The notes under the pieces were generated by a model that was not told where the DNA came from, did not search any database, and was given only the letters and a program-made list of their open reading frames with translations. This document shows positions 10,177 through 40,751 of a stretch of DNA of 64,000 bases, in pieces (within the stretch, counting starts at the first letter, position 1; the number at the start of each line of letters is the position of its first letter). Source of the DNA: a virus; the IMG/VR virus record IMGVR_UViG_3300042197_001567, positions 27,095-91,094 of that record; one strand, 5' to 3'. The position numbers and the translations under genes were made by a program.

Positions 10177-10982
10177 TAAACAGTTTCGGGTTCATATTTT
10201 ATTTCTCTATCTTTTATGTAGAAATATTCTTTTTTTGCTGAATCAATCCAAAACTTTACCTCATCTTCAGACAAACGATCATCACCATTCTTATAGTTCC
10301 AAAAAATCGAACCAGTTCGAAGATTCATATGTTTATATCCGATTTTTGGGATTGTCATAATTTTAGTTGAGTTTTGAGTAAGTCTCAAAAACAATTCATA
10401 ACCAAAAGTTAATTTAATCGATGGTTTAAGCCCACCATTAATTAGAAAAGAATCTCTTTTTATAACCATTCCAGAAATTTGAAAATTTTGATAGGTCAAG
10501 AGAGTGTCATTGGATAAAATCCCAATATCTGAAGATATATTAGCTGCAAATGTTGCTTCGTTTGTAAATCCCACAAAAACACCTTTGTCATCAACATCAA
10601 CAACTACTGGTAAAAATGCATCATAATCTTGATATATACTCATATAATTTTTTACATTTTTAAACCAAATATTTGAGTACTCATCATCAAACTCTAAAAT
10701 ACTTACCCATTCGGAAGTTGCTTTTTCGACTCCAAGATTTACCTGGCTTGAGAAATTGGGCGATCCTTCATGTTCATAAATTTTTACATTGATACCTTCG
10801 AAATTAAATGACTCAACATAATTTTTAAAATTATCTTCGCCAGAATGAACGATAACTAATTCATTTACTTGTTCACTTTGGTTTTTTACCGACAAAATAC
10901 ATTTTTCGAAAAATTCATCAAAATCTGAAGTGTTTCTTGTCTTAATTGGTAATATTACTGATATTGTGTTCATGTGTTCCAT
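10176..10982 (-). CDS. glycosyltransferase family 2
   Basis: ISVILP, NLGVEKATSEWVSILEFDD (GT-A fold, DxD-like). Confidence 0.8.
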   Translation of the reverse strand: MEHMNTISVILPIKTRNTSDFDEFFEKCILSVKNQSEQVNELVIVHSGEDNFKNYVESFNFEGINVKIYEHEGSPNFSSQVNLGVEKATSEWVSILEFDDEYSNIWFKNVKNYMSIYQDYDAFLPVVVDVDDKGVFVGFTNEATFAANISSDIGILSNDTLLTYQNFQISGMVIKRDSFLINGGLKPSIKLTFGYELFLRLTQNSTKIMTIPKIGYKHMNLRTGSIFWNYKNGDDRLSEDEVKFWIDSAKKEYFYIKDREIKYEPETV

Positions 10983-10983
10983 A

Positions 10984-12045
10984 TTATTGTATAGTTTCTA
11001 ATTTATTTAATTGATCCTCAAATGAAGCGGATCTTTTGTCAAAGATTTCTGAAAAAACTTCAACAACATTTTTTTGAAATTTCTCATAGCTGCTATATTC
11101 AGATGATGTTGTTTCCATACTAGAATACAACTCTGGATTAATATTATCTTCTAACCAGTTTTGTACAAAATCAGCAACAACATCAACAACAGAGTTTTTA
11201 TTAACTAACCATAATCCGTTGTCTTCGTTTAACCAGTTTGGTTGTACATAAGGTAAAACACCAATTACCGGGATACCCATTTTCATAGACTCCAACGGAA
11301 ATGTACCAAAACTACTTGTTGGGTCTATCCAGATAGAAACAAAACTATCTTTCATTGCCTCACTGAATTGTTTTTCGGTTAACCCTCTCAAATCTCTGAA
11401 AGTAATCCACCGATATTGTGGAAACCTTGCGTAAAATTCTTTAATTATATTGGCAGTATCACGTTGATCCCTAGTGTGCATTGAGATTATTGTTTTTGCA
11501 GGAGTTTCACTTTTCTGAAAACATTCTGATATAACAGGATTGATAATATCAAAAGATACTTTTCTCATAATTTTTTCAATGTGTGATTTTTGACTTTCGG
11601 ATGTTGTAATACATTTGAAAAAACCTAACTGTGACCAGGTTTGTCCAGGTTGTAATGTTTCGAACATGTGATCATATGCTTGAGTTAAAACAATTTTTCC
11701 ACACGGAAGATTTTTTACTTGTTCCATAATATATCCAAATATTTCAGGAACAATAAGTAAATCATCTGGAGATATTTCAAGATTACCTTCATCTATTGAT
11801 TTGTGAGGTAAAGTGTCCATATAATAAGACCCTAACCATTCACCAACACCAATATATTCTTTTGTTTCATGTAGGATAATTGGATTATATCCATTTTCTT
11901 TTAATGTTAGAGCCATTTGATATGTGTGTCTAACAGATGCTCTAGCATTTCCTTTTGTGTCTTGGACTACAAAGTAAATTCTAGATCTTTTGTCTTTCAT
12001 ATTAGAAATTGATTTTTCTAACTTCTTGATTTGTTCTGTATTCAT
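10984..12045 (-). CDS. glycosyltransferase, GT-B fold (GT4-like)
   Basis: SFGTFPLESMKMGIPVIG matches the E(x7)E/GxPV GT4 motif; DLLIVPE. Confidence 0.75.
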   Translation of the reverse strand: MNTEQIKKLEKSISNMKDKRSRIYFVVQDTKGNARASVRHTYQMALTLKENGYNPIILHETKEYIGVGEWLGSYYMDTLPHKSIDEGNLEISPDDLLIVPEIFGYIMEQVKNLPCGKIVLTQAYDHMFETLQPGQTWSQLGFFKCITTSESQKSHIEKIMRKVSFDIINPVISECFQKSETPAKTIISMHTRDQRDTANIIKEFYARFPQYRWITFRDLRGLTEKQFSEAMKDSFVSIWIDPTSSFGTFPLESMKMGIPVIGVLPYVQPNWLNEDNGLWLVNKNSVVDVVADFVQNWLEDNINPELYSSMETTSSEYSSYEKFQKNVVEVFSEIFDKRSASFEDQLNKLETIQ

Positions 12046-12053
12046 ATTTTATA

Positions 12054-12353
12054 TTATAATTTGTTTATTATTTCTTTCATTAAAAGTGAATTAAATGCAA
12101 TCTTAAATGGGATTGTTAATTCGCTGTTATTTGGTCCTAACTTTTCATCAACATCGTGTGATTCTGTCAATACAGTTTCTAAAAGGTTTTTTATTAATTC
12201 ATATTTAACTAAATGAATTTGTGCTTCTTCTTTAGGTTCTGTATTTTCCATTTCTACATCCTCGATTTCTGACTCAATCGGAACTTTAATTTGTACGTAT
12301 TCATCAATTCTATCGATGTCAACATAGTAAGTTTCATTAAATATTTTAAACAT
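12054..12353 (-). CDS. hypothetical protein, 99 aa
   Basis: ORF coupled within the operon. Confidence 0.65.
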   Translation of the reverse strand: MFKIFNETYYVDIDRIDEYVQIKVPIESEIEDVEMENTEPKEEAQIHLVKYELIKNLLETVLTESHDVDEKLGPNNSELTIPFKIAFNSLLMKEIINKL

Positions 12354-13011
12354 AACTTTTTGATATTTTTTCTAATGATAATTTAAATTCTGATAAAGTG
12401 GATATTTTATGATCACATTGAACATCTTTATTATATGCAGTTTCAAATTTAATTACGGTTTTATTGTTCGGGACGTTGTTTAGTAAAGAAGGATTGGCCG
12501 TTAGCAATACATCAACTTCATCCCACATTTGATTTTTAGTTATTTCACTATAGAATAAAATTTTTTCAATCAAACAACCAAACTTACTTAAGAAAAATAA
12601 AGATGCCGGTTTTGATTTACCAATCTCGTCTGACACTATAAGTAAATTATATTCATCTCGTAAGTCATAATAAATTTCATTTAGTAAATTAAATGTATTC
12701 ATTTCTGTTGATGGTGCATGTCCGAATAATTCCATAGTATATTCTTCATACATAAAACTATATAATTCATCTTTGTCTTGAAACTTGTAATGATTCATAA
12801 GATCTAAAGAATTGACATCACTAATAATACCATATTCGAATGAATTTGTGTTATAAGTTTCCTCTGTGTTCCCAGAATAATCCATATTGTACGTTCTACC
12901 TAAAAACATTTCGTGATCAACGTCGACCAAATGTTTTTCGTAAAGTTGTTTAAATTTTTCTAAAGTGTCTCTTAACACACCATTAATTTCAATCCCTATT
13001 CTCATCGTCAT
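12346..13011 (-). CDS. HAD-fold 5'(3')-deoxyribonucleotidase-like protein with degenerate active site
   Basis: MRIGIEINGVLRD aligns with the NT5C motif IxIDxDGVLxD; TAYN near the C-terminus. Confidence 0.6.
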   Translation of the reverse strand: MTMRIGIEINGVLRDTLEKFKQLYEKHLVDVDHEMFLGRTYNMDYSGNTEETYNTNSFEYGIISDVNSLDLMNHYKFQDKDELYSFMYEEYTMELFGHAPSTEMNTFNLLNEIYYDLRDEYNLLIVSDEIGKSKPASLFFLSKFGCLIEKILFYSEITKNQMWDEVDVLLTANPSLLNNVPNNKTVIKFETAYNKDVQCDHKISTLSEFKLSLEKISKSYV

Positions 13012-13726
13012 ATTTTTTTAGTATTTTACCGATTAATGGATTTCTAACATTTTTGGCGTTTCCAAAATCATATATCCCAACGTCATCAACATTTTTAAAT
13101 CTTTGAATTGCGTCGTACAATCCGGATTGTTTTTTGTCTTTATATCTATCGGTTTGCTCAAGATCACCAGAAATAAAAAACTTACTGTTGAACCCAATTC
13201 TGGTTAATAATAGTTTCATCTGATTTGGTGTTGAGTTTTGTGATTCTTCAAATATCAAAATAGAATTGTCGATATTCATACCTCTCATGTATGCTAAAGC
13301 AAACACCTCAATAATTTCAGCGTCTTTTAATTTTTCTCTTGCTTCTTTTCCGATAATTTTATTTAACAAATAATATGATGGAAAAATATACGGGTCTAAT
13401 TTTTCTTCTAAATTTCCAGGGAGAGACCCAAGTTTTTCTTCCGCCTCAACTGCTGGTCTAACAATGATAATTTTTTCATAAGAATTTTCGGGATCCATAA
13501 GTAAATCAACAGCCGCTTTCATTGCAATATAGGATTTACCAACACCGGCAGGTCCTGAAGCTATTGTAATTTGATTTGACTTTAATATCTTATAATATTC
13601 TTCTTGTTCTTCAGATAAAAATTTATTTCTTTGTTTTCTTTTAATTATAGTGTTAATGAAATCTTTTTTAGAAAGAAGAGGTGTTGGTTCTTCTTTCACT
13701 GGGGTTTGTTTTTTTCTTGTTGTCAT
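12989..13726 (-). CDS. phoH: PhoH family ATPase
   Basis: GPAGVGKS, RPAVEAEEKLGSLPG, LAYMRG, EESQN, LLTRIG, GDLEQTD. Confidence 0.95.
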   Translation of the reverse strand: MTTRKKQTPVKEEPTPLLSKKDFINTIIKRKQRNKFLSEEQEEYYKILKSNQITIASGPAGVGKSYIAMKAAVDLLMDPENSYEKIIIVRPAVEAEEKLGSLPGNLEEKLDPYIFPSYYLLNKIIGKEAREKLKDAEIIEVFALAYMRGMNIDNSILIFEESQNSTPNQMKLLLTRIGFNSKFFISGDLEQTDRYKDKKQSGLYDAIQRFKNVDDVGIYDFGNAKNVRNPLIGKILKKYDDENRD

Positions 13727-14172
13727 TAAGTTGCAAATCTTTTTTTAGATTCCTGTTTATAGATTTCTTGTCTTAAAGATGATGTTGAAAAATGATGGTC
13801 TCTTCTATTATAAATGACTTTAATTCCTCTTTTTTGACATATATCTTTTGCCGTAAAATCTTGGTTCTTATAGTCCTCACCTATGATTCTAACATCTAGA
13901 TCCAGTGCGGAAAATAATGTCTCTAACTCTTCTTCAGTTGAATATGGTATAATTTTGTCAACATAATTAACCGCATCGAGTTGTATATATCTCTCAACTA
14001 AAGATTGTATTGGTTTATTTTTTTCGGGTCTGTCTATTGTTGGGTCAACTTGTAATGCACAAATTAAAAAATCACAATATTTTTTACATTCCTCTAACAT
14101 TATAATATGTCCAGTATGTAATAAGTCAAATGTACTACAAGTAATACCAATTATTTTATTTTCTATTTTCAT
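13726..14172 (-). CDS. tagD: glycerol-3-phosphate cytidylyltransferase-like (TagD family)
   Basis: TFDLLHTGH (HxGH), ERYIQL, GEDY, STSSLR. Confidence 0.8.
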   Translation of the reverse strand: MKIENKIIGITCSTFDLLHTGHIIMLEECKKYCDFLICALQVDPTIDRPEKNKPIQSLVERYIQLDAVNYVDKIIPYSTEEELETLFSALDLDVRIIGEDYKNQDFTAKDICQKRGIKVIYNRRDHHFSTSSLRQEIYKQESKKRFAT

Positions 14173-14198
14173 AATATTAATCTATCACAAAAATAAAT

Positions 14199-15578
14199 TT
14201 AGTCCACATTAAAGATTAATAACATTTCATAGTTTTTAGGAAGATATTGATTATCTTCCGGTTTAATTGTTGTGTAAGTTATATTTTGTTTTTCTCTTTT
14301 AAATAAATCTTTTCCGTTCTTTACAACGTCCATAATATGTTCTTCGTTTACAAATTCTCCATTATTATACTCTTGGTGTGAAAAATTTTGAATTTTATTT
14401 TTAATAAAATTTACATCCCCAAAATATGAAAAATGCCAACCTCCTTTTTGTACCACACTTCCATCACCCATTCTAACTCTTTGAGGTGAGTTAATTGTTT
14501 TATAAGTTCCATAATTAATAACTTTTGGAAAATGCCAAACACCATTAAATTTACAAGTTAAATTATAATAATACATTTCCTGTCTCAATGTCATTAAAGA
14601 TTTTACCAATTTTTTAGCTTTAAGTTCTTTGATGGTATTTGTGTCTGGTATTTCATCAACATCGGTTATAAGAATAATGTCATCATCATTTAATGATAAT
14701 TGTTTAATACCTTTATCAATTGCATTTCTTTGTGTTGTTTCATTTGTCCAGGGGTTAGAATGGTTAAGTTCGTCCTCAACAATATGGATAATTTTATTAA
14801 GATATTTTTCATAACGTTCCTTATTTTCCTCAAAAAACAATGGCTTTTCTTTACCGACAAATGTTTTTGTGGACTCAACTAAAACAAATTTATCAACTAA
14901 ACCATCAAGTTCTTTCAATCTAAATTCTAACATATCAAACTCATTATAAAAAATAAAACAATCTATTATTTTTGTTTCACTTTCTTCTTTGATTTCTTGT
15001 TCTCCTTTGGTAAAGATAGAAGTCATACTATCATAATTAATTTTTTCGTCTTTTTTAAAAATCTCAATATTTTTCATTTGGTTTATTATATTGGATAGGG
15101 AAGGTAAAGTTTCACTTTTAGTTAAAATCTGGTAAGGAGTGACCTTTGAATCGATATATTCTTCTCTAAAGGATGTATGAAGATCCTCAATCACATAAAA
15201 TCCAGAATTTTTTAATTTTGGCCAAAGGATCTCTAATGATTTTAATTGGTGTGATGTCATATGACTACCGTCGTCAATGATAATATCGAAAAAATCATCT
15301 TGATATAATTTAGTTAAATTATCGTCCGCTTGTGAAATTTTTGTAAAATGAAATCTTTCGTGTTGAAAATTGATGTCGATAATATCGATGCAATATATTT
15401 CAGCGTTTTGAAAATAATCTAACCATGTTTTAATTGAATTTCCGGATAGAAATCCTATTTCTAATAGATTAATTTTTTCATTTCGTAAATTATTAAATTT
15501 AGAATCATAAAAATCTAGAAACTTATGATAAGTCGCTTTGTCAGTTTTGTAGGATAATCCTATTTCTTGTAGTGTCAT
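14199..15578 (-). CDS. fusion: class I SAM O-methyltransferase + GT17 (MGAT3-like) glycosyltransferase
   Basis: N-terminal TDK, LLEIG, IIIDDGSH, YVIEDL; C-terminal DCFIFYNEFDMLEFRL, QRN, DVDEIP, GGWHFSY. Confidence 0.85.
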   Translation of the reverse strand: MTLQEIGLSYKTDKATYHKFLDFYDSKFNNLRNEKINLLEIGFLSGNSIKTWLDYFQNAEIYCIDIIDINFQHERFHFTKISQADDNLTKLYQDDFFDIIIDDGSHMTSHQLKSLEILWPKLKNSGFYVIEDLHTSFREEYIDSKVTPYQILTKSETLPSLSNIINQMKNIEIFKKDEKINYDSMTSIFTKGEQEIKEESETKIIDCFIFYNEFDMLEFRLKELDGLVDKFVLVESTKTFVGKEKPLFFEENKERYEKYLNKIIHIVEDELNHSNPWTNETTQRNAIDKGIKQLSLNDDDIILITDVDEIPDTNTIKELKAKKLVKSLMTLRQEMYYYNLTCKFNGVWHFPKVINYGTYKTINSPQRVRMGDGSVVQKGGWHFSYFGDVNFIKNKIQNFSHQEYNNGEFVNEEHIMDVVKNGKDLFKREKQNITYTTIKPEDNQYLPKNYEMLLIFNVD

Positions 15579-16273
15579 ATTGTAATTTTTTTTCTGTTAT
15601 AAAATATGTGTGATGCTCGATATTCACAATCAACAATCACATTTTGTGGTACTTTAATATAACCATAATCATAAAAATCAAAAATATTTACCCAGAATTT
15701 TTCTGGTTGTTCATTACAATGATGGTAATGAGCTGAATTTGTGCCAGGGGGCTCAAAAGAAAACCAAATAATATCTGAATGGTCAACCAGTGTTTTAATT
15801 AAAGTGGCACTAAAAGGAGTTTCGATATGTTCAGCAACTTCAGTACAACAAACCATATCAAATCTTTTTTCTAGGTTTATTGGTAATCTTAAATCGTGTC
15901 TTTTTATAATTTCTGTTGATATACCTTTACTTATTGACGAATCATAACCACAAATAGAACCCTCAAGTGCAAAAATACCAATATTTCTATTTAAAAATTC
16001 TTTTGTAAACCATCCACCACCACAACCAACTTCTAATACCGAATTAAGATTTTTATTTGTTATTTTTTTGTAATAATTGATAACATGACCTACATATTTT
16101 TTTGTGACAATATAAGATACATGATCATGTTTAAAATAATTTTTTTCATAGAATGTGTCAATGTCAAATAATTCAAAGGAATTTGGGTGATCTTCATCAA
16201 ACCACCATTTTTGATTTTTACCAATCCACCCAATATCTTGACCGGATTCATTAAATACTTCTACTTTTTTCAT
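15575..16273 (-). CDS. class I SAM-dependent methyltransferase
   Basis: VLEVGCGGG, FDMVCCTEVAEHI, HHCNEQ. Confidence 0.85.
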   Translation of the reverse strand: MKKVEVFNESGQDIGWIGKNQKWWFDEDHPNSFELFDIDTFYEKNYFKHDHVSYIVTKKYVGHVINYYKKITNKNLNSVLEVGCGGGWFTKEFLNRNIGIFALEGSICGYDSSISKGISTEIIKRHDLRLPINLEKRFDMVCCTEVAEHIETPFSATLIKTLVDHSDIIWFSFEPPGTNSAHYHHCNEQPEKFWVNIFDFYDYGYIKVPQNVIVDCEYRASHIFYNRKKITI

Positions 16274-16274
16274 A

Positions 16275-16955
16275 TTATCTTTTTCTCCATTTATTCATAA
16301 ACACACGACCTAATCCATCAGTCATTTCATATTTCTTTCTTCCTTCAAGAAATCCATGACTTTTACTTAAAAGGTGTGTTACTTTTGATTTTGTAATAAG
16401 CGCGTGTTTAATATTGTTTTTCTTTAAACTTTGAGCATAATCATTGTCCTGATACCAAAATGTAAATTGTTCATCAAATCCACCAATTGTTTGAATTGCC
16501 GATTTATGAACCAATATTGACCAACCAGCAACTTCATATGAAGTTCTATACCCATAGTAAATGTCAGACTTTTTATCAAATGTTTGATGTCTGTGCCAAT
16601 CATCATCCATAGGTGACATAGATAAAATTTGATTGTCATGATTATGAGCAATCATCATTTCTTCTAAAAAGTTTTTGTGATATATTGTATCATTGTTGGA
16701 TATCAAAACCCAATCATTTTTACAATCCTTAAGTCCAATATTTAAAAATTTGTTGTAATTAAATTCTTCCTTTGGTTGTATTACTTTAACATTTGGTTGA
16801 TCATATTTGTATCCGTTAATCCAATCAGTTTCAATTAATAAAATATTAAATTTAATATCTTCAGAACTAGAGTTTAGACTATTAATACAGTCATTATTCA
16901 TTTTTAAAATTGAGTCGTCTTTTACATAACTCAAAATTATTACATCTACTACCAT
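16275..16955 (-). CDS. glycosyltransferase family 2
   Basis: VDVIILS, FNYNKFLNIG, SNND, GGFDEQF..WYQDND. Confidence 0.85.
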   Translation of the reverse strand: MVVDVIILSYVKDDSILKMNNDCINSLNSSSEDIKFNILLIETDWINGYKYDQPNVKVIQPKEEFNYNKFLNIGLKDCKNDWVLISNNDTIYHKNFLEEMMIAHNHDNQILSMSPMDDDWHRHQTFDKKSDIYYGYRTSYEVAGWSILVHKSAIQTIGGFDEQFTFWYQDNDYAQSLKKNNIKHALITKSKVTHLLSKSHGFLEGRKKYEMTDGLGRVFMNKWRKR

Positions 16956-17006
16956 CTTATTTATTATTATAAACGTGTTTTATTGTGTTGTAAATATATA
17001 AGTTTA

Positions 17007-17150
17007 TTATAAGGCCCTTTTTGTTGTCCAAACTATTATACGTTTACGTTCCAACTTAATTTTTAATTTTTCTTCTACCTGATTGCGAGTTAATAACTCA
17101 CCTTCAATGACCATAACATTTTTTTCTAATTTACTAATGGTTGGTTGCAT
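17007..17150 (-). CDS. possible small protein, 47 aa
   Basis: MQPTISKLEKNVMVIEGELL...TKRAL*; starts 1 nt after the upstream stop. Confidence 0.4.
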   Translation of the reverse strand: MQPTISKLEKNVMVIEGELLTRNQVEEKLKIKLERKRIIVWTTKRAL

Positions 17151-17151
17151 T

Positions 17152-18675
17152 TTATCTATTTCCATATAAATGTCTAATAACATTCATGACAAATTGTTGG
17201 TTTACTAATGGTGTTTCTGTTGGTGTTATTCCGTGTTTTCGTTTATAATGTTCTGTACCAACTCTAAAGTTTTCATTCCATTCCGGAGTTCTTGCAATTG
17301 TACTTTCCTGTATTGAGTTTGGAATATCGGTCAAGTAATCCCAACTTTTATCAATATCCGCAAAATACCAAAAAGGTGGGTGAAAATTATTTTTAATTGC
17401 TTGATAAGTGTGCTCAACATGTTCCCAAGCGTTTTTAAACATCGGATCAAATAAACCAATTTTATCTAATACTGATTTGTGATAGTACGAAAATGCACCA
17501 ACGCAATTAGGATATAAAACAACACTGACACCTTCTGGATATGGTACTACCATTCTTGGATTTGGTTCTCCATCAACATCTTTTCTATCTTCAAGAGTTG
17601 TAAAACCCGTGGATCCTTTTTTATTTGCTGGACCATGAAGTGCAAAATTTAAATGTTTTATCCCGGAAATAACTGAATGTCTTATGTATTGTTCAAAAAC
17701 TTTTTCGTTTTTAATTAATATGTCGTCTTCCATAAGAAATATGTGCTCACAACCTTGATCTAACAAATATTTCATTGCGGTATTTTTTGCTGCCCCAACA
17801 CATTGATTTGTTTCATGTTGAATGATGTGTGCTTGTTCTGGATATGATGAACTATCGTATGGAGTACCATCATTTACAATTACAAAGTTTTTCATCCACT
17901 TTGGTACTGTAAATGCAGATTGTTTGATTCTGTGTTCTGCTTTATATGTTGTCATCCCAATACCAACTTTAGAAATATCAAATTCCATTTTTTCTTCTAA
18001 AGTTTTATTGTTGGATAATCTTACGGGAAGATTATTCTTATATTTTTCTTCGAATTTTGTTTTATTTTGTTCCCACTGTTCGTTGGTCATGCCAACAGAT
18101 TTGTGAGTAACTCTAATTAAAGTTGTAACTCCAAGTTTAACCCCATTTAAGTAGTTTTCAAAACAAAATGGAATTTCATAAAAATGAAACCCTTTGAACT
18201 CTTCGTTGAAATTTGATTTTAATTTTGTTTTATCAACGGCAAAAAATAACCCGTCAAGAACAACAACTTCTTTAATTTTATTTCCTTGGTCAGGCGAATA
18301 TGTGTTAGTCCATTTTTTTCCTTCATGTTTGTGTGAAACGATTCCGGTCATTGATTCTTTCATTGTCCACCAACGACCATCAATTAAATCTGTGGTTCCT
18401 GCAATTCCAATTACACCGAATTCGGGGTTTTTAGAAAATAATTTTAATAATTTTTCACCCCAATTTTTTGTATCGAATTCAATATCGTCATGACAAAAAA
18501 CAACTATATCATTTTTCGACTCATTTAAAATTTCATTATAAACTTGTGCCAATCCTTTTTCACCATTATTTACCTTTTCGATAAATTCATAGTGTTTGTT
18601 TTTTCCACAAGAGCTTCTTAAATATTCTAAAAGTTGTGGATTATGTTGTCTAGTTGAGTATCCTAATGTTATCAT
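17152..18675 (-). CDS. tandem two-domain GT-A glycosyltransferase
   Basis: Domain 1 YN..VVFCHDD..GIAG..LDGLF..FHFY; domain 2 VNDG..GAAKN..FLMEDD..GLFD..EH. Confidence 0.8.
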   Translation of the reverse strand: MITLGYSTRQHNPQLLEYLRSSCGKNKHYEFIEKVNNGEKGLAQVYNEILNESKNDIVVFCHDDIEFDTKNWGEKLLKLFSKNPEFGVIGIAGTTDLIDGRWWTMKESMTGIVSHKHEGKKWTNTYSPDQGNKIKEVVVLDGLFFAVDKTKLKSNFNEEFKGFHFYEIPFCFENYLNGVKLGVTTLIRVTHKSVGMTNEQWEQNKTKFEEKYKNNLPVRLSNNKTLEEKMEFDISKVGIGMTTYKAEHRIKQSAFTVPKWMKNFVIVNDGTPYDSSSYPEQAHIIQHETNQCVGAAKNTAMKYLLDQGCEHIFLMEDDILIKNEKVFEQYIRHSVISGIKHLNFALHGPANKKGSTGFTTLEDRKDVDGEPNPRMVVPYPEGVSVVLYPNCVGAFSYYHKSVLDKIGLFDPMFKNAWEHVEHTYQAIKNNFHPPFWYFADIDKSWDYLTDIPNSIQESTIARTPEWNENFRVGTEHYKRKHGITPTETPLVNQQFVMNVIRHLYGNR

Positions 18676-19235
18676 ATGCCTGTACTTCCAAAACCTTTAT
18701 CGGACCTATCTTTATTTTTAATAGTTCCTACTTCTACTAGTCTAATCCACTTACCACAAACAACAGGAGATACGACCGCTTGAGCAATTTTTTGTCCTTT
18801 TTCTATTTTAACTTTTTGATTTGTAGTGTTGAATATAATTACTTGAATTTCACCAGTATAACCTTGATCTACAGTTCCTGGTGAATTTAAAACCATAAGA
18901 CCTTGTTTAAGTGCTAATCCACTTTTTGATCTTACTTGGATTTCATATCCGTCTGGAATATCTATGTGTAGTCCAGTCGGTACTAAAATCCTATCGAAAG
19001 GATGAACCCAGATATCTGTGGTTGAAAATAAATCAAAACCAGAATCCGTAGGATATGCATACTTTGGAGATGTTGCGTCTTCATTTGATTTAGAAAATTT
19101 AACGTCCATAGTTGGTTGATACGCAACCATCTCTTTTTCTAAAGAATCAATAGTAAAACCAAATCTTTCTTCAAAATTCTTAAACGAATTGTTTTCAAAA
19201 TCATCACTGAATAAATCTTCAATATTTTCTTCCAT
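18672..19235 (-). CDS. dut: dUTPase (trimeric)
   Basis: SGFDL, RSKSGLA, PGTVDQGYTGEI, IAQ, RSDKGFGSTG. Confidence 0.95.
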   Translation of the reverse strand: MEENIEDLFSDDFENNSFKNFEERFGFTIDSLEKEMVAYQPTMDVKFSKSNEDATSPKYAYPTDSGFDLFSTTDIWVHPFDRILVPTGLHIDIPDGYEIQVRSKSGLALKQGLMVLNSPGTVDQGYTGEIQVIIFNTTNQKVKIEKGQKIAQAVVSPVVCGKWIRLVEVGTIKNKDRSDKGFGSTGI

Positions 19236-19936
19236 TATTTTAAACTTTTTAATTTCATAATTGCGTCAATCAATACTTCAACATCTCTCTCACAGTATTC
19301 GGCAATTTCTTTTAATTTATTTTGTTCCCAGTAGGATTCGTGTACTTTACCACCAGTTACCTCACCATCTTTTGGTGTCGGTATATCCAAACAAGCACAC
19401 ATCAAATCTAATGAACCAATTGCGGTGTATGCCCCATATTGCCAAATTTCTTTTGTGTCAATTGCCTTTACCTCCCATGGTTTAGTATCGTAAGACGGAA
19501 GTATTTTAGATGGCATAATTCCATTTACAATCATACGTTTTGCTAACATAGGAATGTCAAAGTTTTTTAAATTATGACCGCAAAGGTAAAAGTCTAACTT
19601 ATGACAACGATTTAATAAATCTCGAACATCGGTTAACAATTTAACTTCGTCATCACCAGAAAACGTTTGTTTTTTTACTTCACCATTATCTAAAACAAAT
19701 GCCATTGACACACAAACAATTTTTGCAAACTCCGGAACTAATGCGGTTCGTTTTGCGAAAATCTGATCTAATGAAAGTTGCGAATCTTCAGGAAATCTTT
19801 TTTGAAACCAGTCGATATATTTAATGAATTGATCCGCCACTTTTGGATTACTGGTTTTACATGTTTCATAGTCCCTACAACCACCAACAGTTTCAATATC
19901 CAAAAATAAAATTTTTGTTAAAGGTATATTTATCAT
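19235..19936 (-). CDS. 3'-5' exonuclease, PolB-exo-like (DEDDy)
   Basis: FLDIETV, GHNLKNFDIP, YCERDV. Confidence 0.85.
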   Translation of the reverse strand: MINIPLTKILFLDIETVGGCRDYETCKTSNPKVADQFIKYIDWFQKRFPEDSQLSLDQIFAKRTALVPEFAKIVCVSMAFVLDNGEVKKQTFSGDDEVKLLTDVRDLLNRCHKLDFYLCGHNLKNFDIPMLAKRMIVNGIMPSKILPSYDTKPWEVKAIDTKEIWQYGAYTAIGSLDLMCACLDIPTPKDGEVTGGKVHESYWEQNKLKEIAEYCERDVEVLIDAIMKLKSLK

Positions 19937-20769
19937 TATTTGTTTTTTAGTTTATCGATTATTTCCCACCCTTTGTTTTTACCATATGCTTTTAAAGTTG
20001 TGGTGCTAACAGACAATTTATTTTTTTTTACATGTTCAATAAATGAAGTATAACCCAAAAATTTTAAAATGTCATTAGATGGTGTTTTAATTACCCAAAT
20101 AATTTTTCTAGAGTGAGATTGTTTTTCCACCGATTCCTTGCTCCTTTTCTTACCTAATCTAGATAAAGACATTTGTATTTTTCGTTCATCAGTATATTTT
20201 TTACCTTTGTTAGGTGATACTTGTCCTTTTTTTTTATCTGAAATTTTTTTCTTGGATTCATTAGACATTGGTTTTTTTTTTATACCTTTTAGTGACTCAC
20301 TAATTTTTTTTCTTGTGTTGTCATTTATAATTCTACCTTTAGACACTTCTCTAATTTTTTTTCTAAAACCTTCAGACATTTTTAGACCTTTATTCCAACC
20401 ACCGATATTTCTATTTTGATTTTTTGCGGTTTGAGACATTTTAATTTTACTTTCTTTGGTGTGTTTTTTTCCTAACATAGGGGATCCGCCGTCACCACCT
20501 GAAGTTAAATTAACTAAATTAAATCCCCAACATTTCATTTGATAAATCCAATATGACTCAATTTCATTTGATATGTCATCATCACAGATATCTAATATTT
20601 CCATAACAATTTTTCTGTTATTTAATAAAACATTATTAATCCACTTTTCTTTATAAGTTTTTTTGTGTTTACTCTCATTGATGTGTGAGTGATATCTTTT
20701 GACGGTAAATTTTGTTTTACCAACATAACGGATTTTTTCTCCGTCGCTTAATGTGTAAATATAAGTCAT
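19936..20769 (-). mobile_element. GIY-YIG homing endonuclease with NUMOD3 repeats
   Basis: YIY..IRYVGKT..R..H, E..WI, NLTSGGDG, repeated GKKHTKESKIKMS-type motifs. Confidence 0.85.
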
Positions 20770-20797
20770 AACAATAAATATTATGACTTATATAATA

Positions 20798-22045
20798 TTA
20801 CTTAACTAAACTCAAATAAAAATCAGCTCTTGTTTTAGTGACCAAATTAAGATCATATCTATCTTTTACGGTTTCATACAATCTTTCTCCAAGATCTGTA
20901 ATCATATTTGGATTTTCAACCAATTTTTTAATCGATTTGAACCAATCGCTGTGATTTCTTGTCTCATCAACTAATAGTGCGTTTCCATCAGTAAACTGAC
21001 CATTTTTAAGTGCGTGTTTTAAATCAATTGTATATGGACCAACGTTTGATGCGATTAATGCTTTTTTATAAAAGCCAGCCTCAATTACTTTTAATTGTGA
21101 TTTCATTCGATTAAATACATGATTTTTAATTGGTGCTAATGAAATATCAAATTTAGAATAATTTTTAGCATAGCTTGTAACCGGTCTTGTCCATACTCTA
21201 ACATAATTTTCATTCTCAACACCAAGGTAATCGTTCTCAATAAAAGTATCTAAATAATTTTTATACTTTTCTGAAATTATTTTGTAATTATCAGTAAAAA
21301 TCTGTTCGTATTTAACCCAAACGGTTTCTTCAGGTCTAATTGGTCTTTGTGTTTTTTCACCAGTTTGTCTATTGATTTCAGTAACTTGTCCTCTAATGTC
21401 AAATCCACAAACATAATACTGTAACTTATTTTGGTAGTTTGACAACTTTGGGACCAATCCGTCTAAAAGTTTTAAATCATGTAGGTGAGAAGATCCTCCT
21501 AACCAACCAACTCTAATTTTTTCGGATGGTAGTGTTGGTTCACAAAACTGCGGGTCTTTTGGATCAACAGCATTAGGTAAAACAAAAACATTTTTATTAA
21601 ATTTTCTAATTTCATTTGCAAACAATTCTGTGGTTGTCGTAACATAATCACAAACTTTAAGATTTGCCATAATTTTCTCGTGCAATTTGTTTGACACGAT
21701 TAACTGATGAATTGGATGTTCTTTTGTTGGTAACCAATAATCATCAATATCTCCAATTACAACAATACCTAATGACCGTAATGATTTAATTAAATTTGGT
21801 GTGTTATCGTAATCTGAACCTATGGTTCTGTGAAAATGTACAATCTGATATTTTTTCCAGTAATTTATATCGTTAATTCTTGGCGAATAATCAATATCAA
21901 CATGAAACTCGTCTGGAAAAAGATTTTGTAATTTAACGTGGGGGTCAACTGAACGGAATTTACCTCAGCCAACCCCCGACTGGTCACTTGGAAGAACCAA
22001 TACTCTGATTCTTTCACGACCATTCAAGGGGTTATTTTGTGTCAT
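20798..22045 (-). CDS. GT-B glycosyltransferase whose reading frame contains an in-frame TGA at codon 27 (21967-21965)
   Basis: Track ORF 20798..21697 continues in frame upstream: MTQNNPLNGRERIRVLVLPSDQSGVG*GKFRSVDPH...DIDDYW...; C-terminal GWLGGSSH, DISLAP, KSQLKVIEAG. Confidence 0.8.
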
Positions 22046-22946
22046 ATTTTTTAATTAGTTTATTTATTATAGTTCGATCCGAAATATAATCCGATTCCCA
22101 AACTACTTCTAAATTATAACCATTATTTAAAATTATGTCAACTTTGTTTCTATCATATTCCCAAAGTTTTTCGGCCGTCATACCTTTTACTTGGTGAAAA
22201 TAGTCTTTATTGTACTTGTTTGGGTTACAGTGCCAATAATCACCATTATACTCTATTATCAAATTTAATTTAGGTAAAAATATATCACAAATTTTTGTAT
22301 CAACTCTGTGAGAATGTTTTACACTATACCCAAGTTTTTTTATTTCATTTATTATTTCTTTTTCTGTTTTTGATCTGTTAATTGATTTTAATTTACCTAG
22401 TCTTCTTGTTTCATTCATTTTTTCAGACATTATTTTTTTAACGTGATCTAATTCACCACTATCCCATTTTTGTTTAAGATTTTTTCTTGCCTTTTCTTTC
22501 CACATTTTGTTTGACATAGAATTTTTATTACCAGTCGCCTTTCCTTTTCTATTTTCAGATATTTGTTTTTTTGTTTCTTCTGAATGTTTTTTATTATAAA
22601 ATGGGTTATTATTTCCTTTCATATTTTCAGATAAACAACTTTTACAAACTGAATTTTTATTTTCTGAATTAAAATAGTTTCTACATGTTGTTACTTGAGT
22701 TTTTGTTGTAATTAATATTATTTTTTCACATCTCGGACATTTTCTTTCAGTTACATACTTCCCATTTATTAGTTTTATCTCAATAGATTTACATCTATTT
22801 CTTTTTCTAACAACTTTGTTATCATTCAGTATTTTTAAAATAGTTGGTTTAGAAACATTAAATTCTTCGGCAATTTGTATCGAATTTCTTCCTTGTAAAT
22901 ATTTTTTGATGATTAACTTTTCGTCCAGATTGATCTTTTTACCCAT
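22032..22946 (-). mobile_element. homing endonuclease: HTH + Zn finger + NUMOD3 + Vsr/DUF559-like nuclease domain
   Basis: CPRC..CKSC, NPFYNKKHSEETKKQIS, D..IIEYNGDYWH..D..K..GYNLEVVWESD; start reassigned to ATG 22946. Confidence 0.8.
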
Positions 22947-23005
22947 AACATTTTTTATTATAAATACACCGTAAATGTCAATAGGCAACATTAACAATAG
23001 AAAAT

Positions 23006-28308: not shown

Positions 28309-31300
28309 ATGGCATTTGTAATTATTAATGACCCTATTGGTGGTCTAACGTCCACGGTAAGATGTGGTCAATCGAATACGGCGGCTAACTCATACTCAAC
28401 GGTGTCCGGTGGTTTTCAAAACACATCGAAAGGAAACTACACCACAATTTCTGGCGGTCGTAATAACCAAAATAGAAACGATTATTCGTCTGTTGTTGGT
28501 GGTATAAAAAATACAACTATAGATTGTTTATCTATTGTTGGTGGAGGTCAATTAAACACCTCTTGTAAAAATTACACAGTGATAGGTGGCGGTTTTGGAA
28601 ATTTTACAAATGGTTGTTATTCATCAATATCCGGTGGTAGAAATAATACCGCATGTGGAAATTATTCATCAGTAATTGGTGGATGTAACAATACTGCAAC
28701 AGGAATTGCTTCAATGGCATTTGGACTTGATAACAAAGCACTTGCTTGTGGAACTGTTGTTTTAGGTGGTCAATTTTTAACTGGTACTGTTGCTAATCGA
28801 GTATATGTGCCAACATTAAACATAAATTCATTACCTTCAGGTTCTTTTGCAAATAATTTAGGTGTTGACAATTTTGGTAATGTAATCGCTGGTAGAGATT
28901 ATTTTGTAACTGGTGGAACTTTGAATTATAATACATGTAATTTAACATTAAATAGACAAAACGGTTCAGTTGTAATTTCAGGTTTACAAGACATATACTT
29001 GACAGGAGCAACTTACGATTCTTTGACTGGTATATTATCCTTGGAAAGAAATAATGGATGTGCAGTGATCAATGCAGGTCCATTTGTTACAAATAACACA
29101 TTTGTAACTGGAGGTACTCTTGATTATAATGCAGGGCAATTAACTTTAGATAATAATGATGGATCTAATGTTATCATAAATGGATTACAAGATTACTATA
29201 CTACAGGTTTTACATTTAATAATAGTAACTTTGACTTAACAATTGAATTAAATAACAATAGTGCCTATACAGTAAATCTTGGTGTTCTAGCAACCGACCT
29301 TGGTTTAACTGGTGGTACTTACGACGCAAACACTGGAGTTGTTACATTTATTAACACTTCAGGTCAAACTGTACAAGTATCAGGTTTTACAACAGGTTAT
29401 ACCGACATTTATTTAACTGGTGGTACATTCTCAAACGGAGATTTGACTTTGACAAATACAGATGGATCTACAGTTCTTGTTACTGGATTCACTTCAATCG
29501 ACACTTATGTTACTGGTGGAACTTATGATAACAACACTGGTGACGCAACATTCTTTGATAACCAAGGAGGATCATTTGTTGTAACCGGTTTTACTACTGG
29601 TGCGACAGATTACTATACGACTGGATTTACATTTAATGTAGGTAATTATGACTTAACCGTAGAACTTAATAATGGAAGTGCTTATACTGTGAATCTTGGT
29701 GTTTTATCAAGTGATATGACAATTACTGGAGGAACTTATGATCCTGTAACAGGAATCGCAGAATTTACAAATAATACCGGAGGAACCTTCTTTGTTACAG
29801 GATTTTTAACTGGATACACCGATCATTATGTGACTGGTGGTTTTGTGGACGCAGCAAATAATCAGTTAGTAATCCAACAACAAAATGGTAACGTTTTAAT
29901 TCCTTTTGATGATGCTGTTATCATTAATGGTACTGGATTTAATTCTGCGGTTAGAAAAAATGTGGGTAACATTGCAAATAACAGTTATTCTTCAGTTTTG
30001 GGTGGACTCAACAATTTAGGTTCTGGATACGCATCTATAGTTGGTTCTGGTTTACTTAATACTGCTGGTAATTTTTATGGATCCGTAGTTGGTGGTGTTC
30101 TTAACGTAAGTATTGGGGGTTATGATAGTGTTGGTGGAGGTGCTTACAATACAAGTTCATCACAATTCTCAAATGTTGTTGGTGGATATGCCAATACATC
30201 ATCAGGATTTTATTCATCTATTAACAGTGGATATTTCAATAAGTCTAGAAACCAGTACTCCCATATTTCAAACGGACAATCTAACACAGCACATAGTATT
30301 TATACATTTGTTGGTAATGGGTGTTTAAACAAAGCCGTTGGTTGTCATTCTGCAGTTCTTAACGGAAGTCAAAACACATCTTTAGGTGTTTTTTCTACCG
30401 TAATTGGTGGGTCATGTAATACTTCAGTAGGATTTAATTCTGCTGTAATTGGAGGAAATAGTATTATTGGTGCTGACTCAAATAAGGTTTATGTTCCAAA
30501 ATTAAATATTCAAACAATAGAATCAACCGCACCAGTTTATAATTTGGCAATAGATGCTAATGGAAATGTTGTTTCAGGATCATCTACAACAGATTATTAC
30601 TTAACAGGTTTAACTTGGAACCCAGGTACATTTGATTTAACCGCAGAAGTTAATGACGGAAATAACTACACAGTTAGTTTGTCAGTTCTTGCTTCTGATA
30701 TGACGGTAACCGGTGGTACTTATGATGCCAACACAGGTATTGTGACCTTTACAACAAATTCTGGAAACACATTTAATGTAACTGGTTTCACAACTGGATA
30801 TACTGATGTTTTCTTAACAGGAGGTACATATAATAACTCAAACGGTGAGATCACATTAACAAACACTGATGGATCAACAGTTGTTGTAACAGGATTAACT
30901 TCTTGTTGTGTGACTGGTGGTACATTTGATTACACGGGAGGTACTTTAACATTAGATACCGTAACTGGTCAAATAACAATTCCAGGATTACAAGATCATT
31001 ATTTATCTGCAGCAACATACAACACAGGTATTTTGACTTTAACTATGGAGGATGGATCAATAATTCAAGCTTCCGGGTTTGTAACACAAGACACATTCAT
31101 AACTGGAGGTACTTTTGATCAACTCACAAATACATTAACGTTAGATCTTAATGATACAACTCAAGTTACAATTCCAGGTTTCCCTCAAGAAACATTTGTA
31201 CAGAGCGGAACTTTTGATTCTAATTTTGGAATCTTAAATTTACAACAACAAAATGGTATTGTGTCAATTGGTGGATTCCCTACGGGGCCAGCAATCAACC

Positions 31301-32103
31301 CAATTATAATTCCTGGGTCAGGGACTAATTCATCTTTGAGATGTGGTTTGTCAAATACAACATGTGCGCCAAGATCAATCGCTTTAGGTTGTAAAAACAC
31401 AGTTGCATTAGGTGGGGATGACTCAAATATTTTAGGTGGAGATACTAATAAAATCACAGGTAGCGTCTCAACAATCGTAGGTGGTATTAATAACGTTTCA
31501 TTGGCAAGTAACAGCATTAATGGTGGTACTGGAAACTACATTGGATCATCAGGTGTTGCATCAACAATAATTGGGGGTCAAGGAAACTGTGTTAATAATA
31601 CACATTCATTTATCGGTGGTGGTTTAACAAACACATTATTAAGTTGTAGATCAGTAATAGCTGGTGGAGAATTAAATAAAATTTGTACAACAGCACCAAA
31701 CGCATCCATTTTAGGTGGTAGAGCAAATACAGTCTTATCAAACGCTAATGGAGGATTTATTGGTGGTGGTTCATTTAACACGACTTTAGGAAATCTTTCT
31801 TCAGTACTTGGTGGATCCACAAATACGGCGGTTGGTGACTTCTCATCAATTTTAGGTGGAAGTTCAAACAAAGCAACTTGTGTTTACTCAAGTGTTATTG
31901 GGTGTAACATTACATCAACTTGTTCTTATACAACTCACGTAAATAACCTATTAGTTAATGGTGGCGGACTTTCTTTAACTCACGTTATTGTAAACTCAAT
32001 ACCAACAGAGTCTGACTTACCATCTCTTCCAATAGGTGCAATTTACAGATGTACAAATGATGGAAATGGAACTAACACTTCATTACACATTAAATGGCAA
32101 TAA
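28309..32103 (+). CDS. long tail fibre/adhesin-like protein with GGxxN beta-helix repeats and TGGT repeats
   Basis: 1264 aa; three blocks of ~15-aa S.(I/V).GG..N repeats alternating with ~30-aa Y(V/L)TGGT(Y/F)D..G.LTL repeats. Confidence 0.7.
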   Translation: MAFVIINDPIGGLTSTVRCGQSNTAANSYSTVSGGFQNTSKGNYTTISGGRNNQNRNDYSSVVGGIKNTTIDCLSIVGGGQLNTSCKNYTVIGGGFGNFTNGCYSSISGGRNNTACGNYSSVIGGCNNTATGIASMAFGLDNKALACGTVVLGGQFLTGTVANRVYVPTLNINSLPSGSFANNLGVDNFGNVIAGRDYFVTGGTLNYNTCNLTLNRQNGSVVISGLQDIYLTGATYDSLTGILSLERNNGCAVINAGPFVTNNTFVTGGTLDYNAGQLTLDNNDGSNVIINGLQDYYTTGFTFNNSNFDLTIELNNNSAYTVNLGVLATDLGLTGGTYDANTGVVTFINTSGQTVQVSGFTTGYTDIYLTGGTFSNGDLTLTNTDGSTVLVTGFTSIDTYVTGGTYDNNTGDATFFDNQGGSFVVTGFTTGATDYYTTGFTFNVGNYDLTVELNNGSAYTVNLGVLSSDMTITGGTYDPVTGIAEFTNNTGGTFFVTGFLTGYTDHYVTGGFVDAANNQLVIQQQNGNVLIPFDDAVIINGTGFNSAVRKNVGNIANNSYSSVLGGLNNLGSGYASIVGSGLLNTAGNFYGSVVGGVLNVSIGGYDSVGGGAYNTSSSQFSNVVGGYANTSSGFYSSINSGYFNKSRNQYSHISNGQSNTAHSIYTFVGNGCLNKAVGCHSAVLNGSQNTSLGVFSTVIGGSCNTSVGFNSAVIGGNSIIGADSNKVYVPKLNIQTIESTAPVYNLAIDANGNVVSGSSTTDYYLTGLTWNPGTFDLTAEVNDGNNYTVSLSVLASDMTVTGGTYDANTGIVTFTTNSGNTFNVTGFTTGYTDVFLTGGTYNNSNGEITLTNTDGSTVVVTGLTSCCVTGGTFDYTGGTLTLDTVTGQITIPGLQDHYLSAATYNTGILTLTMEDGSIIQASGFVTQDTFITGGTFDQLTNTLTLDLNDTTQVTIPGFPQETFVQSGTFDSNFGILNLQQQNGIVSIGGFPTGPAINPIIIPGSGTNSSLRCGLSNTTCAPRSIALGCKNTVALGGDDSNILGGDTNKITGSVSTIVGGINNVSLASNSINGGTGNYIGSSGVASTIIGGQGNCVNNTHSFIGGGLTNTLLSCRSVIAGGELNKICTTAPNASILGGRANTVLSNANGGFIGGGSFNTTLGNLSSVLGGSTNTAVGDFSSILGGSSNKATCVYSSVIGCNITSTCSYTTHVNNLLVNGGGLSLTHVIVNSIPTESDLPSLPIGAIYRCTNDGNGTNTSLHIKWQ

Positions 32104-32116
32104 AAAAAATAAACTC

Positions 32117-32143
32117 AACCCCCTTTTAACCGAGGGGGTTTTT
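32117..32143 (+). terminator. intrinsic terminator or attenuator between the fibre genes
   Basis: AACCCCCT-TTTAACCG-AGGGGGTT-TTT. Confidence 0.65.
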
Positions 32144-32158
32144 AAAAAAAATAAAAAA

Positions 32159-34183: not shown

Positions 34184-34201
34184 AATTATTTTAATAATAA
34201 T

Positions 34202-34227
34202 AACCCCACACTTAAGTGGGGTTTTTT
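34202..34227 (+). terminator. intrinsic terminator
   Basis: AACCCCAC-ACTTAA-GTGGGGTT-TTTT. Confidence 0.7.
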
Positions 34228-34267
34228 GTTTTATACACTTTTGATTTTCATTTATTATTTTAAAGGT

Positions 34268-35909: not shown

Positions 35910-35922
35910 AAAAAATATAATT

Positions 35923-37292: not shown

Positions 37293-37295
37293 AAG

Positions 37296-37526
37296 GTGAT
37301 GAGTCAATCAATTCTAATAGAAAGTAGTAATTACAATAATCAGGACGCTAACGTTTTGTTCTATCCTGAAACTACGGATATTGTTATAAATTTAGGTGTT
37401 GTTACAATTCCATTTCTATTTGAATCGTCTATGTTGTATCCTCCACAAGAACCTTTTGGTTATTATACAATATTACCGGTTGACTCTCCAGATTGTCCTA
37501 ACGTATTACACGTACCAAGAACATAA
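37296..37526 (+). CDS. small putative virion protein
   Basis: Late motif at 37280-37287; INLGVVTIPF. Confidence 0.55.
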   Translation: MMSQSILIESSNYNNQDANVLFYPETTDIVINLGVVTIPFLFESSMLYPPQEPFGYYTILPVDSPDCPNVLHVPRT

Positions 37527-37528
37527 TT

Positions 37529-37750: not shown

Positions 37751-37766
37751 TTATTTTTAACTGACT

Positions 37767-39011: not shown

Positions 39012-39059
39012 TTTTAGATTCAGTAGTTAGCAAAATAAATTAAGACGCATTGAAATGAT

Positions 39060-40724: not shown

Positions 40725-40751
40725 ATAGTATATTTATATTAAAAAGCATAG

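Follow-up and report, generated by a model that had tools for sequence, protein, structure and literature searches.

Probable programmed stop-hop in a phage glycosyltransferase gene, carried by a homing-endonuclease cassette

Introduction

Programmed bypassing of mRNA by the ribosome has long rested on gene 60 of phage T4 and its homologues; beyond these, there are a candidate in the terminase gene of Streptomyces phage phiHau3, with 10-nt inserts at a rare UUA codon (PMC10732093), and the mitochondrial 'byp' elements of the yeast Magnusiomyces capitatus, many short mobile inserts that are bypassed and leave the protein unaffected (cited in a 2016 review, PMC5009743). In T4, the insert belongs to the MobA/gene 60 element, which it protects from the element's own nuclease, and the cassette was termed unique in the same 2022 preprint (Manning & Atkins, bioRxiv 10.1101/2022.08.31.505936). 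Synthetic stop-hops have been built in E. coli from matched codons around a stop, so that 9 nt are read as one amino acid; their efficiency was low, in reporters without stimulators, and for such stop-hops in nature Atkins et al. stated in 2016 that 'no occurrences are known' (PMC5009743). Here we describe a probable natural case. In a 64,000-nt stretch of viral DNA (positions 27,095 to 91,094 of IMG/VR record IMGVR_UViG_3300042197_001567; hereafter the window), a glycosyltransferase (GT) gene on the minus strand is interrupted by an in-frame TGA between two glycine codons, GGC-TGA-GGT, next to a homing-endonuclease gene.

This locus shares with T4 gene 60/MobA an overall layout (an endonuclease gene, a new N-terminal extension, an element-borne copy of the replaced target codons, and a non-coding insert), an element 3' boundary just past the insert, and a site geometry in which a Gly take-off codon is directly followed by a stop and then by a matching landing codon, with take-off codon and stop in the 5' arm of a stem-loop. 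In both systems the insert outlives the decay of the endonuclease, insertion into related genomes is repeated and independent, and there are 'hit-and-run' derivatives that keep the extension only, of which locus L131 may be an example here. The two differ in their target, here a GT4-like glycosyltransferase and there the topoisomerase II large-subunit gene, and in their endonuclease, which here combines helix-turn-helix (HTH), NUMOD3 and Vsr-like domains whereas MobA is an HNH enzyme. The gap is 2-10 nt here (movements of +5 to +13; 3 nt in the window) and 50 nt in gene 60 (47 nt between codons); the GT is not split into two open reading frames (ORFs), and its endonuclease lies upstream of the start. 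The 3' arm of the window hairpin lies beyond the landing codon, the two cassettes have no sequence similarity, and the present system is known from sequence alone. In our reading, the window element works like T4 gene 60/MobA but is not a member of that family.

The synthetic stop-hops have exactly the codon-stop-cognate codon geometry of the window and the +6 movement of the peptidyl-tRNA that is proposed here; the window site differs in that it occurs naturally, is conserved and selected, and has conserved candidate signals around it. Shared with the phiHau3 candidate are residence in a phage gene, a short gap, a codon that is slow to decode in the A site, and a 5' stem-loop and Shine-Dalgarno (SD)-like stimulators as proposed signals, but phiHau3 has a hungry sense codon, a proposed role in growth-stage regulation, no link to a homing endonuclease, and a single gap length. 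The byps differ in being 27-55 nt long, in belonging to mitochondrial translation with an unassigned A-site codon, and in having no endonuclease gene. Among open-access papers and bioRxiv we found no paper on short stop-hops in phage glycosyltransferases. If our reading is correct, stop-hops would have here their first natural family, with an origin independent of T4 gene 60. A homing endonuclease coupled to a bypass insert would then be a recurrent evolutionary solution rather than a T4 oddity: the endonuclease would disrupt its own target within an invariant motif at no cost to the protein. Natural variation in gap length would make the rules of take-off and landing directly testable, as a selected series at one codon (+5 to +13, two tRNA species) in which to dissect ribosome release and re-landing.

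Results and Discussion

A conserved stop in a gene under selection

The source record is a 91-kb contig of an uncultured contractile-tailed jumbo phage (CheckV completeness 28%), and the runs that match the window are freshwater metagenomes from 16 studies. The window has a GC content of 31% and uses the standard code, its genes tiling well under table 11; TGA is a normal stop, terminating 21 long ORFs, and we therefore rejected TGA=Gly (code 25) and TGA=Trp (code 4). The GT was the only interrupted gene found in the 64 kb. It reads from ATG 22045 for 26 codons, MTQNNPLNGRERIRVLVLPSDQSGVG, up to the TGA, and then continues for 388 sense codons to TAA 20800-20798, so that a hop would give a protein of 413 aa. 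The start, the GGC-TGA-GGT, the 388 codons and a 13-bp stem with three G-U pairs, all reported in a first-pass annotation of the window, hold on recomputation; that annotation had also placed the GTG at 21697 past the DIDDYW motif, and this is indeed the earliest in-frame start after the TGA, 89 codons on.

Most close relatives lack the interruption. In a collection of 5.8 billion proteins, 116 of the 120 closest ones start MxKINVL and contain SGVGKFRS, the motif that a hop would produce, which bears out the statement in the first-pass annotation that related GTs read GVGKFRS. The other four (P0002-P0005) share the N-terminus of the window and read GVGWGKFRS; this W is probably TGA translated under code 4 by the gene caller, i.e. 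the site is already mis-annotated publicly. A degenerate DNA pattern permitting either TGA or TGG matched 14 viral contigs, all with TGA. A stop-blind anchor, taken from the extension sequence 33-54 nt upstream of the site (AAYGGTCGTGARAGAATYARR), returned the same 14 viral contigs together with 67 metagenome contigs, and from these came 53 GT-type loci with 26 distinct 51-nt segments: 24 with TGA, one with TAA (L122), and one in which the extension is present without the insert (L131). Gly-stop-Gly is thus kept in 25/25 distinct insert-bearing sequences. In about 25 metagenome contigs, e.g. L099, L101 and L103-L105, the anchor hit another conserved gene, unrelated to the GT (NGRERIKCQLKRH..., NGRERIKCQLKRHLSPMTVGLITRMLPLEGN...); we discarded these hits, and the match is probably a coincidence. 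A megablast search of the region against a phage collection gave no match and tblastn gave relatives at no more than 35% identity, so that no cultured relative is available.

The window comes from a metagenome-assembled contig, and an assembly error or a recent nonsense mutation in a dead gene could place a stop here. However, the same stop is found in 14 viral and about 39 metagenome contigs that differ at synonymous sites, as well as in runs of independent studies, and contigs from two independent DNA studies cross the site with the TGA kept and without any indel. The frame downstream is open for 387-390 codons in every sufficiently long locus. The ratio of nonsynonymous to synonymous substitution rates (dN/dS) past the stop is 0.115 at a dS of 1.36 among insert-bearing genes, the same as in 45 uninterrupted genes (0.115); relaxed selection, which the first-pass annotation had named as evidence against a hop together with raw-data errors and G-x-G homologues, is not seen, and the homologues align with an exact two-codon insertion, G-stop-G versus G. 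The codons just past the stop vary synonymously (AAA/AAG, TTT/TTC/TAC/TAT, CGT/CGC/CGA/AGA) and hence are translated in that frame. We consider the chance that the gene is dead or misassembled to be negligible. In locus L134 (Ga0172363_10077235; GGC-TGA-GGA) the ORF passes the usual stop position and is still open after at least 416 codons, where the contig ends; a C-terminal extension or fusion is possible.

The stop is also found in RNA libraries. Two 151-nt metatranscriptome contigs from different studies span 21922-22085, including the hairpin and the TGA, and are unchanged; the RNA evidence is limited to these two bridging contigs, as metatranscriptome runs with small word shares give neither habitat nor expression level. 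Removal or alteration of the 6 nt in the RNA, by editing or a micro-splice, would give a stop-free mRNA, and the stable hairpin around the stop could in principle be a processing signal, for which there is no direct support. Against this, the two RNA contigs cross the site without change or gap, there is no homopolymer for transcriptional slippage, and we know of no mechanism that excises 2-10 nt from bacterial or phage mRNA; we hold this explanation to be highly improbable.

Sister cassettes with other gap lengths

Searches of viral contigs with the endonuclease protein and with the long form of the GT revealed sister cassettes at the same GT codon as the window insert, with different gaps (Table 1). 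In all 48 distinct interrupted sequences a stop, TGA or TAA, lies directly 3' of the take-off codon, and the landing codon is mostly cognate to the take-off tRNA, for either Gly (GGY) or Ser (AGY): take-off and landing are GGY to GGY in 24/25 members of the window class, and matched GGY or AGY pairs are present at 10/14 representative sites. The window gap itself is in frame. The out-of-frame shifts of the sister cassettes are followed by ORFs that are open for 388-778 codons past the landing codon and under purifying selection; the chance probability of an open 770-codon frame is ~6e-30. In the +13 class, three diverged genomes (proportion of synonymous differences, pS, up to 0.235) have an identical gap and a downstream dN/dS of 0.025-0.05, and dN/dS between gap classes is 0.10-0.31. 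The predicted hop products are those of uninterrupted relatives, e.g. PSDRTGVS-YFRSTNPHIALE, where the gapless L288 reads PSDRTGVSYFRSTNPHIALE. In L231 (~3394-3480), with a Ser take-off and a Gly landing codon, re-pairing would need a G-U pair at the first codon position, and the product, GVSKFRS, is a natural variant of the motif (e.g. in P0027).

Table 1. Gap classes of the sister cassettes, ordered by the predicted movement of the peptidyl-tRNA.
Movement (nt)	Take-off codon, gap, landing codon	Loci
+5	AGT, TG, AGC (stop overlaps landing codon)	L229, L230
+6	GGT, TAA, GGT	L210, L212, L216, L248, L250
+6	GGT, TAA, GGC	L232-L234
+6	GGT, TGA, GGA	L220
+6	AGT, TAA, GGC	L231
+7	AGC, TGAA, AGC	L247
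+8	AGC, TGACA, AGC	L240, L241, L243
+8	AGC, TGAAA, AGT	L290, L291
+8	GGT, TAAAT, GGT	L296
+9	AGC, TGACTA, AGC	L222
+10	GGC, TGAATTA, GGT	L235
+13	GGC, TGAATTTAAA, GGA	L206-L208, L238

Readthrough and the protein site

In the protein, the interruption falls where the homologues show no change in length. Between G[VC][GS] and x[FY]R, no insertion is found in 68 diverse representatives (33-78% identity) or in the 116 close homologues, and length variation near the site occurs only before the first Gly. The AlphaFold2 model of P0001, which is 97% identical to the window product (predicted local distance difference test score, pLDDT, 96.4; predicted TM-score, pTM, 0.92), places the site past strand beta-1 and the PSDxS loop, where helix alpha-1 makes its first turn; it falls between G17 and K18, three residues before the invariant R20. 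The modelled fold is GT-B, of a GT4-like glycosyltransferase, with BshA, PglA, MshA, GlgM and PimA as the top Foldseek matches (probability 1.00); the family is PHROG 7162, the Pfam match to Glyco_trans_1_4 is sub-threshold, and a sequence search of the PDB found no relative.

These observations bear on stop-codon readthrough, in which a near-cognate tRNA (e.g. tRNA-Trp at UGA) would insert an amino acid and the protein would have 415 aa and contain GVG-X-GKFRS. Among bacterial stops UGA is the leakiest, an in-frame insert such as that of the window class would restore the ORF, and gene callers have already produced just such proteins in P0002-P0005. Readthrough would, however, add two residues in the first turn of alpha-1, where 0/184 homologues have an insertion, and would leave the duplicated, tRNA-matched codon unexplained. 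TAA replaces TGA in L122 and in several sister lineages, and the +5, +7, +8, +10 and +13 shifts change the frame, so that readthrough cannot rescue these genes. The tRNA arrays of two insert-bearing relatives, with 24-25 tRNAs, contain no suppressor anticodon (tca, tta, cta), although they do encode tRNA-Trp(CCA) and tRNA-Gly(UCC). Taken together, readthrough appears unlikely to us. UGA-specific recoding such as selenocysteine incorporation does not fit the TAA variants, the UGA lies within the 5' arm of the stem, and searches for a selenocysteine insertion sequence (SECIS) or any other Rfam family gave noise only. Against genome-wide reassignment or suppression of the stop, there is just one interrupted gene in 64 kb and no suppressor tRNA in the arrays of the relatives; there are no tRNA genes in the 91-kb record.

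The tRNA genes of the relatives lie on L197 and L198, the contigs of L007 and L006, where most of the 24-25 have U34; the phage tRNA-Gly(UCC) is cognate for GGA, the 'mismatched' landing codon of L134, L220 and the +13 class. On the contig of L006 there is also a cloverleaf tRNA-like gene (L198:2903-2977, minus strand) with a 6-nt anticodon loop, ACACAA, which ARAGORN reports as 'tRNA-???' with a 2-nt anticodon.

Re-initiation and frameshifting

Homing endonucleases do divide genes into working halves, as with T4 genes 39 and 60, and the GT might likewise be split: a 26-aa peptide would end at the stop, re-initiation would make the rest, and the pieces would assemble. For the +5, +10 and +13 classes, this is helped by a TTG that precedes the landing codon by 1-5 codons in the downstream frame, and in two +8 classes CTG is the sole available start codon in that frame. 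In the window, however, there is no ATG, GTG, TTG, CTG or ATH from the stop to codon 89, and the same holds for the downstream frame of the +7, TAAAT +8 and +9 classes and of all +6 classes. The GKFRSVDPH right after the stop is under amino-acid constraint, and a 26-aa fragment with beta-1 alone would be an unlikely subunit. Re-initiation, judged from the start codons present, is not a general alternative across the gap classes, and we regard a split gene as very unlikely. An SD-like GAGG inside TGAGGT was considered as a re-initiation signal and rejected, as no in-frame start comes after it. Frameshifting by +1 or -1 at the stop was likewise rejected, both alternative frames closing quickly in the window; in the sister classes, the shift required would differ from class to class, and residues would be added to the invariant loop.

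The proposed stop-hop and its candidate signals

A single mechanism, a hop to a matched codon, explains every gap class and yields the consensus protein. We believe it likely that GGC-TGA-GGT is a programmed +6 translational hop, or stop-hop, carried by the homing-endonuclease cassette, as the comparison of the loci suggests; for the in-frame member in the window, the hop is inferred by homology and parsimony. The first-pass annotation had proposed that the ribosome skips 6 nt to make a 413-aa protein with SGVGKFRS, and it is above all the out-of-frame sister gaps with their matched codons that lend support to this proposal. Peptidyl-tRNA-Gly would be paired to GGC in the P site, and UGA would occupy the A site, until the anticodon releases; the mRNA would then slide by 6 nt, the tRNA would re-pair on GGU, and decoding would restart at AAA 21961-21959. 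The outcome would be a 413-aa protein with the family-invariant SGVGKFRS in the first turn of alpha-1, with VLVLPSDQSGVGK as the predicted junction peptide where readthrough would leave ...SGVG-X-GK. Candidate stimulators are the A-site stop, a 5' G-run, the N-terminal extension and, in the window class, the hairpin.

The G-run and the extension extend beyond the window class. The Gly codon two positions before take-off is GGG in 43 and GGA in 5 of the 48 distinct interrupted sequences, and the tetramer GGGG or GGAG is present in 48/48; in 70 uninterrupted genes the same codon is GGT 39, GGA 25, GGC 4 and GGG 2 times, with GGGG once and GGAG 25 times. Classes that lack the long hairpin have the run as well. 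Lying 2 nt upstream of the P-site codon, it is a candidate stimulator placed like the SD-like element of prfB. In the +1 frameshift of prfB, the gene for release factor 2 (RF2), an SD-like G-rich element precedes the P-site codon by 2-3 nt and UGA occupies the A site; there, slippage is by +1 onto an overlapping codon, and the event is autoregulatory and not mobile, whereas the window site would hop to a non-overlapping codon within a mobile cassette. The N-terminal extension is present in all gap classes, with the common motif (T/N/S/A)P-x-x-(G/R/Q)-(R/Q)-(K/E/R)-I-(K/R)-VLV, i.e. a Pro followed by basic residues; it may signal through the nascent peptide, as happens in gene 60, or simply add length to a chain that would otherwise have 17 residues at take-off. 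In the Ser-type classes, a 4-bp AGCU/AGCU mini-helix links the take-off and landing codons.

The hairpin of the window class has 13 bp (three of them G-U) and a 12-nt loop that starts with the landing codon, its 5' arm containing take-off codon and stop. Its minimum free energy is -24.1 kcal/mol, whereas 200 dinucleotide shuffles give -12.5 +/- 2.8 (0/200 as stable; z -4.1), and the mean for the same segment in 45 uninterrupted homologues is -5.9. Twelve of the base pairs are present in 25/25 class sequences. Third-codon positions are variable in 8/8 cases in the loop and flanks; in the stem, 4/7 are invariant and the other 3 vary only with pairing kept. We treat the hairpin as a candidate stimulator for this class only.

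Several observations weigh against the stop-hop or weaken its support. The window class is in frame, so that its sequence by itself is compatible with readthrough. The cassette ancestry is shared by many of the sequences, and counts such as 25/25 are not counts of independent events; the RNA-library contigs are shallow (depth 2) and may be carried-over DNA. Codon matching is imperfect, with GGA as landing codon in L134, L220 and the +13 class and with AGT-TAA-GGC in L231, and there are the TTG codons of the +5, +10 and +13 classes described above. As to the hairpin, it is confined to the GGY-TGA-GGY class and absent from the other gap classes, and with GGC in the P site its arms flank the ribosome on opposite sides, so it cannot be folded at take-off. 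Covariation of the stem, which the first-pass annotation had suggested as a check in relatives, is weak, with one compensatory pair (C-G to U-G to U-A; 39/500 shuffles), and we thus rely on the conservation at synonymous sites, where stem positions are indeed conserved or preserve pairing. A general hairpin 5' of take-off is likewise weak and not specific, being present in uninterrupted genes too and barely stronger in interrupted ones (-5.6 vs -3.7 kcal/mol); it is not claimed here as a stimulator.

A mobile cassette at the 5' end of the GT

At every insert-bearing locus there is an endonuclease gene (57-69% identity) or a remnant of 30-104 codons, ending 70 nt before the landing codon, and the endonuclease is absent from almost all uninterrupted loci. 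In the cassette, the endonuclease gene is followed by a new ATG and an extension of 9-11 codons, by recoded codons for beta-1 and the Gly loop, and by GGC-TGA; uninterrupted homologues begin MxKI(N/K)VLV, compared to the MTQNNPLNGRE extension in the window. L008, with the insert and an endonuclease remnant, and the uninterrupted L049 are ~90% identical on either side of one block, which contains the endonuclease 3' end, the new ATG with an 8-codon extension, the recoded RIRVLVLPSDRSGVG codons and GGC-TGA; similarity returns ~12 nt past the insert.

Among insert-bearing genes dS is 0.28 in the recoded region vs 1.36 downstream, and their divergence, 0.11-0.15 over codons 0-38, rises to the level of the family background at around codon 50-65, a gradient that can be called co-conversion-like. 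A tree of the 3' part of the gene does not group the ten distinct insert-bearing genes: their scatter requires at least 8 changes, and a test of monophyly rejects it (p-AU, approximately unbiased test, 8e-6). The locus thus combines what is generally expected of a homing cassette, i.e. an adjacent endonuclease, a distribution at odds with the phylogeny of the host gene, and a co-conversion tract. By these comparisons, the 6 nt are the 3' end of a mobile homing-endonuclease cassette, and in many lineages of large freshwater phages that are unrelated to one another, a mobile element has taken the place of the GT 5' end. In at least 8 lineages the endonuclease has decayed and the insert is still there, together with an intact GT.

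By analogy with T4 MobA/gene 60, the extra bases may serve to disrupt the endonuclease's own target site while the protein stays unchanged, which would protect the element from its own enzyme. It is fairly likely, in our view, that a family of such micro-bypass cassettes travels with the homing endonucleases of large aquatic phages, with hops of 5-13 nt by bacterial ribosomes over a stop that depend on a very compact set of signals: the stop itself, a matched landing codon, the 5' G-run and the nascent-peptide extension.

One locus, L131 (Ga0214923_10012937), has the extension only, with the native-type codons GGA GTT GGA AAG and without insert or endonuclease. Two origins fit this locus: a 'hit-and-run' event, or recombination with a conversion tract that stopped between extension and insert. 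More distant relatives of the endonuclease (31-53% identity) lie directly upstream of uninterrupted GTs that have neither extension nor gap (L218, L219, L221, L223-L228, L236, L237, L244, L249, L258); this endonuclease family therefore does not always bring a bypass insert.

Features of the locus and its neighborhood

The coordinates of the cassette and of the GT are collected in Table 2. The upstream endonuclease gene and the GT overlap by 14 nt, at the stop of the former and the start of the latter; from the endonuclease stop to the landing codon the distance is 70 nt.

Table 2. Features of the interrupted locus in window coordinates.
Feature	Position	Strand	Basis or remark
Free-standing homing endonuclease gene	22032..22997	-	321 aa from TTG 22997; HTH_7, NUMOD3, MTES_1575 (Vsr-like restriction endonuclease) by Pfam; PHROG homing endonuclease families
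New start and N-terminal extension MTQNNPLNGRE, cassette-borne	22013..22045	-	homologue comparison
Recoded 'homologous region' RIRVLVLPSDQSGV, beta-1 strand and start of Gly loop	21971..22012	-	cassette codons replace native ones
G-run GGGGG, SD-like, 2 nt 5' of take-off codon, within hairpin 5' arm	21973..21977	-	
Take-off codon GGC (Gly)	21968..21970	-	GGC 20, GGT 5 among 25 distinct class members
In-frame stop TGA (3-nt coding gap), which would occupy the A site when the ribosome takes off	21965..21967	-	TGA 24, TAA 1 of 25
Landing codon GGT (Gly)	21962..21964	-	GGT 23, GGC 1, GGA 1 of 25
13-bp hairpin	21940..21977	-	arms GGGGGTTGGCTGA (21977-21965) and TCAGTTGACCCCC (21952-21940), loop 21964-21953
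Downstream GT frame, 388 codons and stop; GT-B fold (modelled), GT4-like	20798..21964	-	dN/dS, predicted structure, PHROG 7162
Second free-standing homing endonuclease, GIY-YIG + NUMOD3	19936..20769	-	outside hop cassette

In annotation, genes of this kind are called as truncated ORFs, which here would start at GTG 21697, or are translated with the wrong code, giving a spurious Trp as in P0002-P0005; this should serve as a warning when such genes are annotated. The second endonuclease lies directly downstream of the GT and is absent from the ~90 related loci compared, which suggests that it invaded this neighborhood recently and separately. The window is also rich in glycosyltransferase genes (10176-22045 and 28309-41954), and the segment 17152-18675 matches PHROG glycosyltransferase families.

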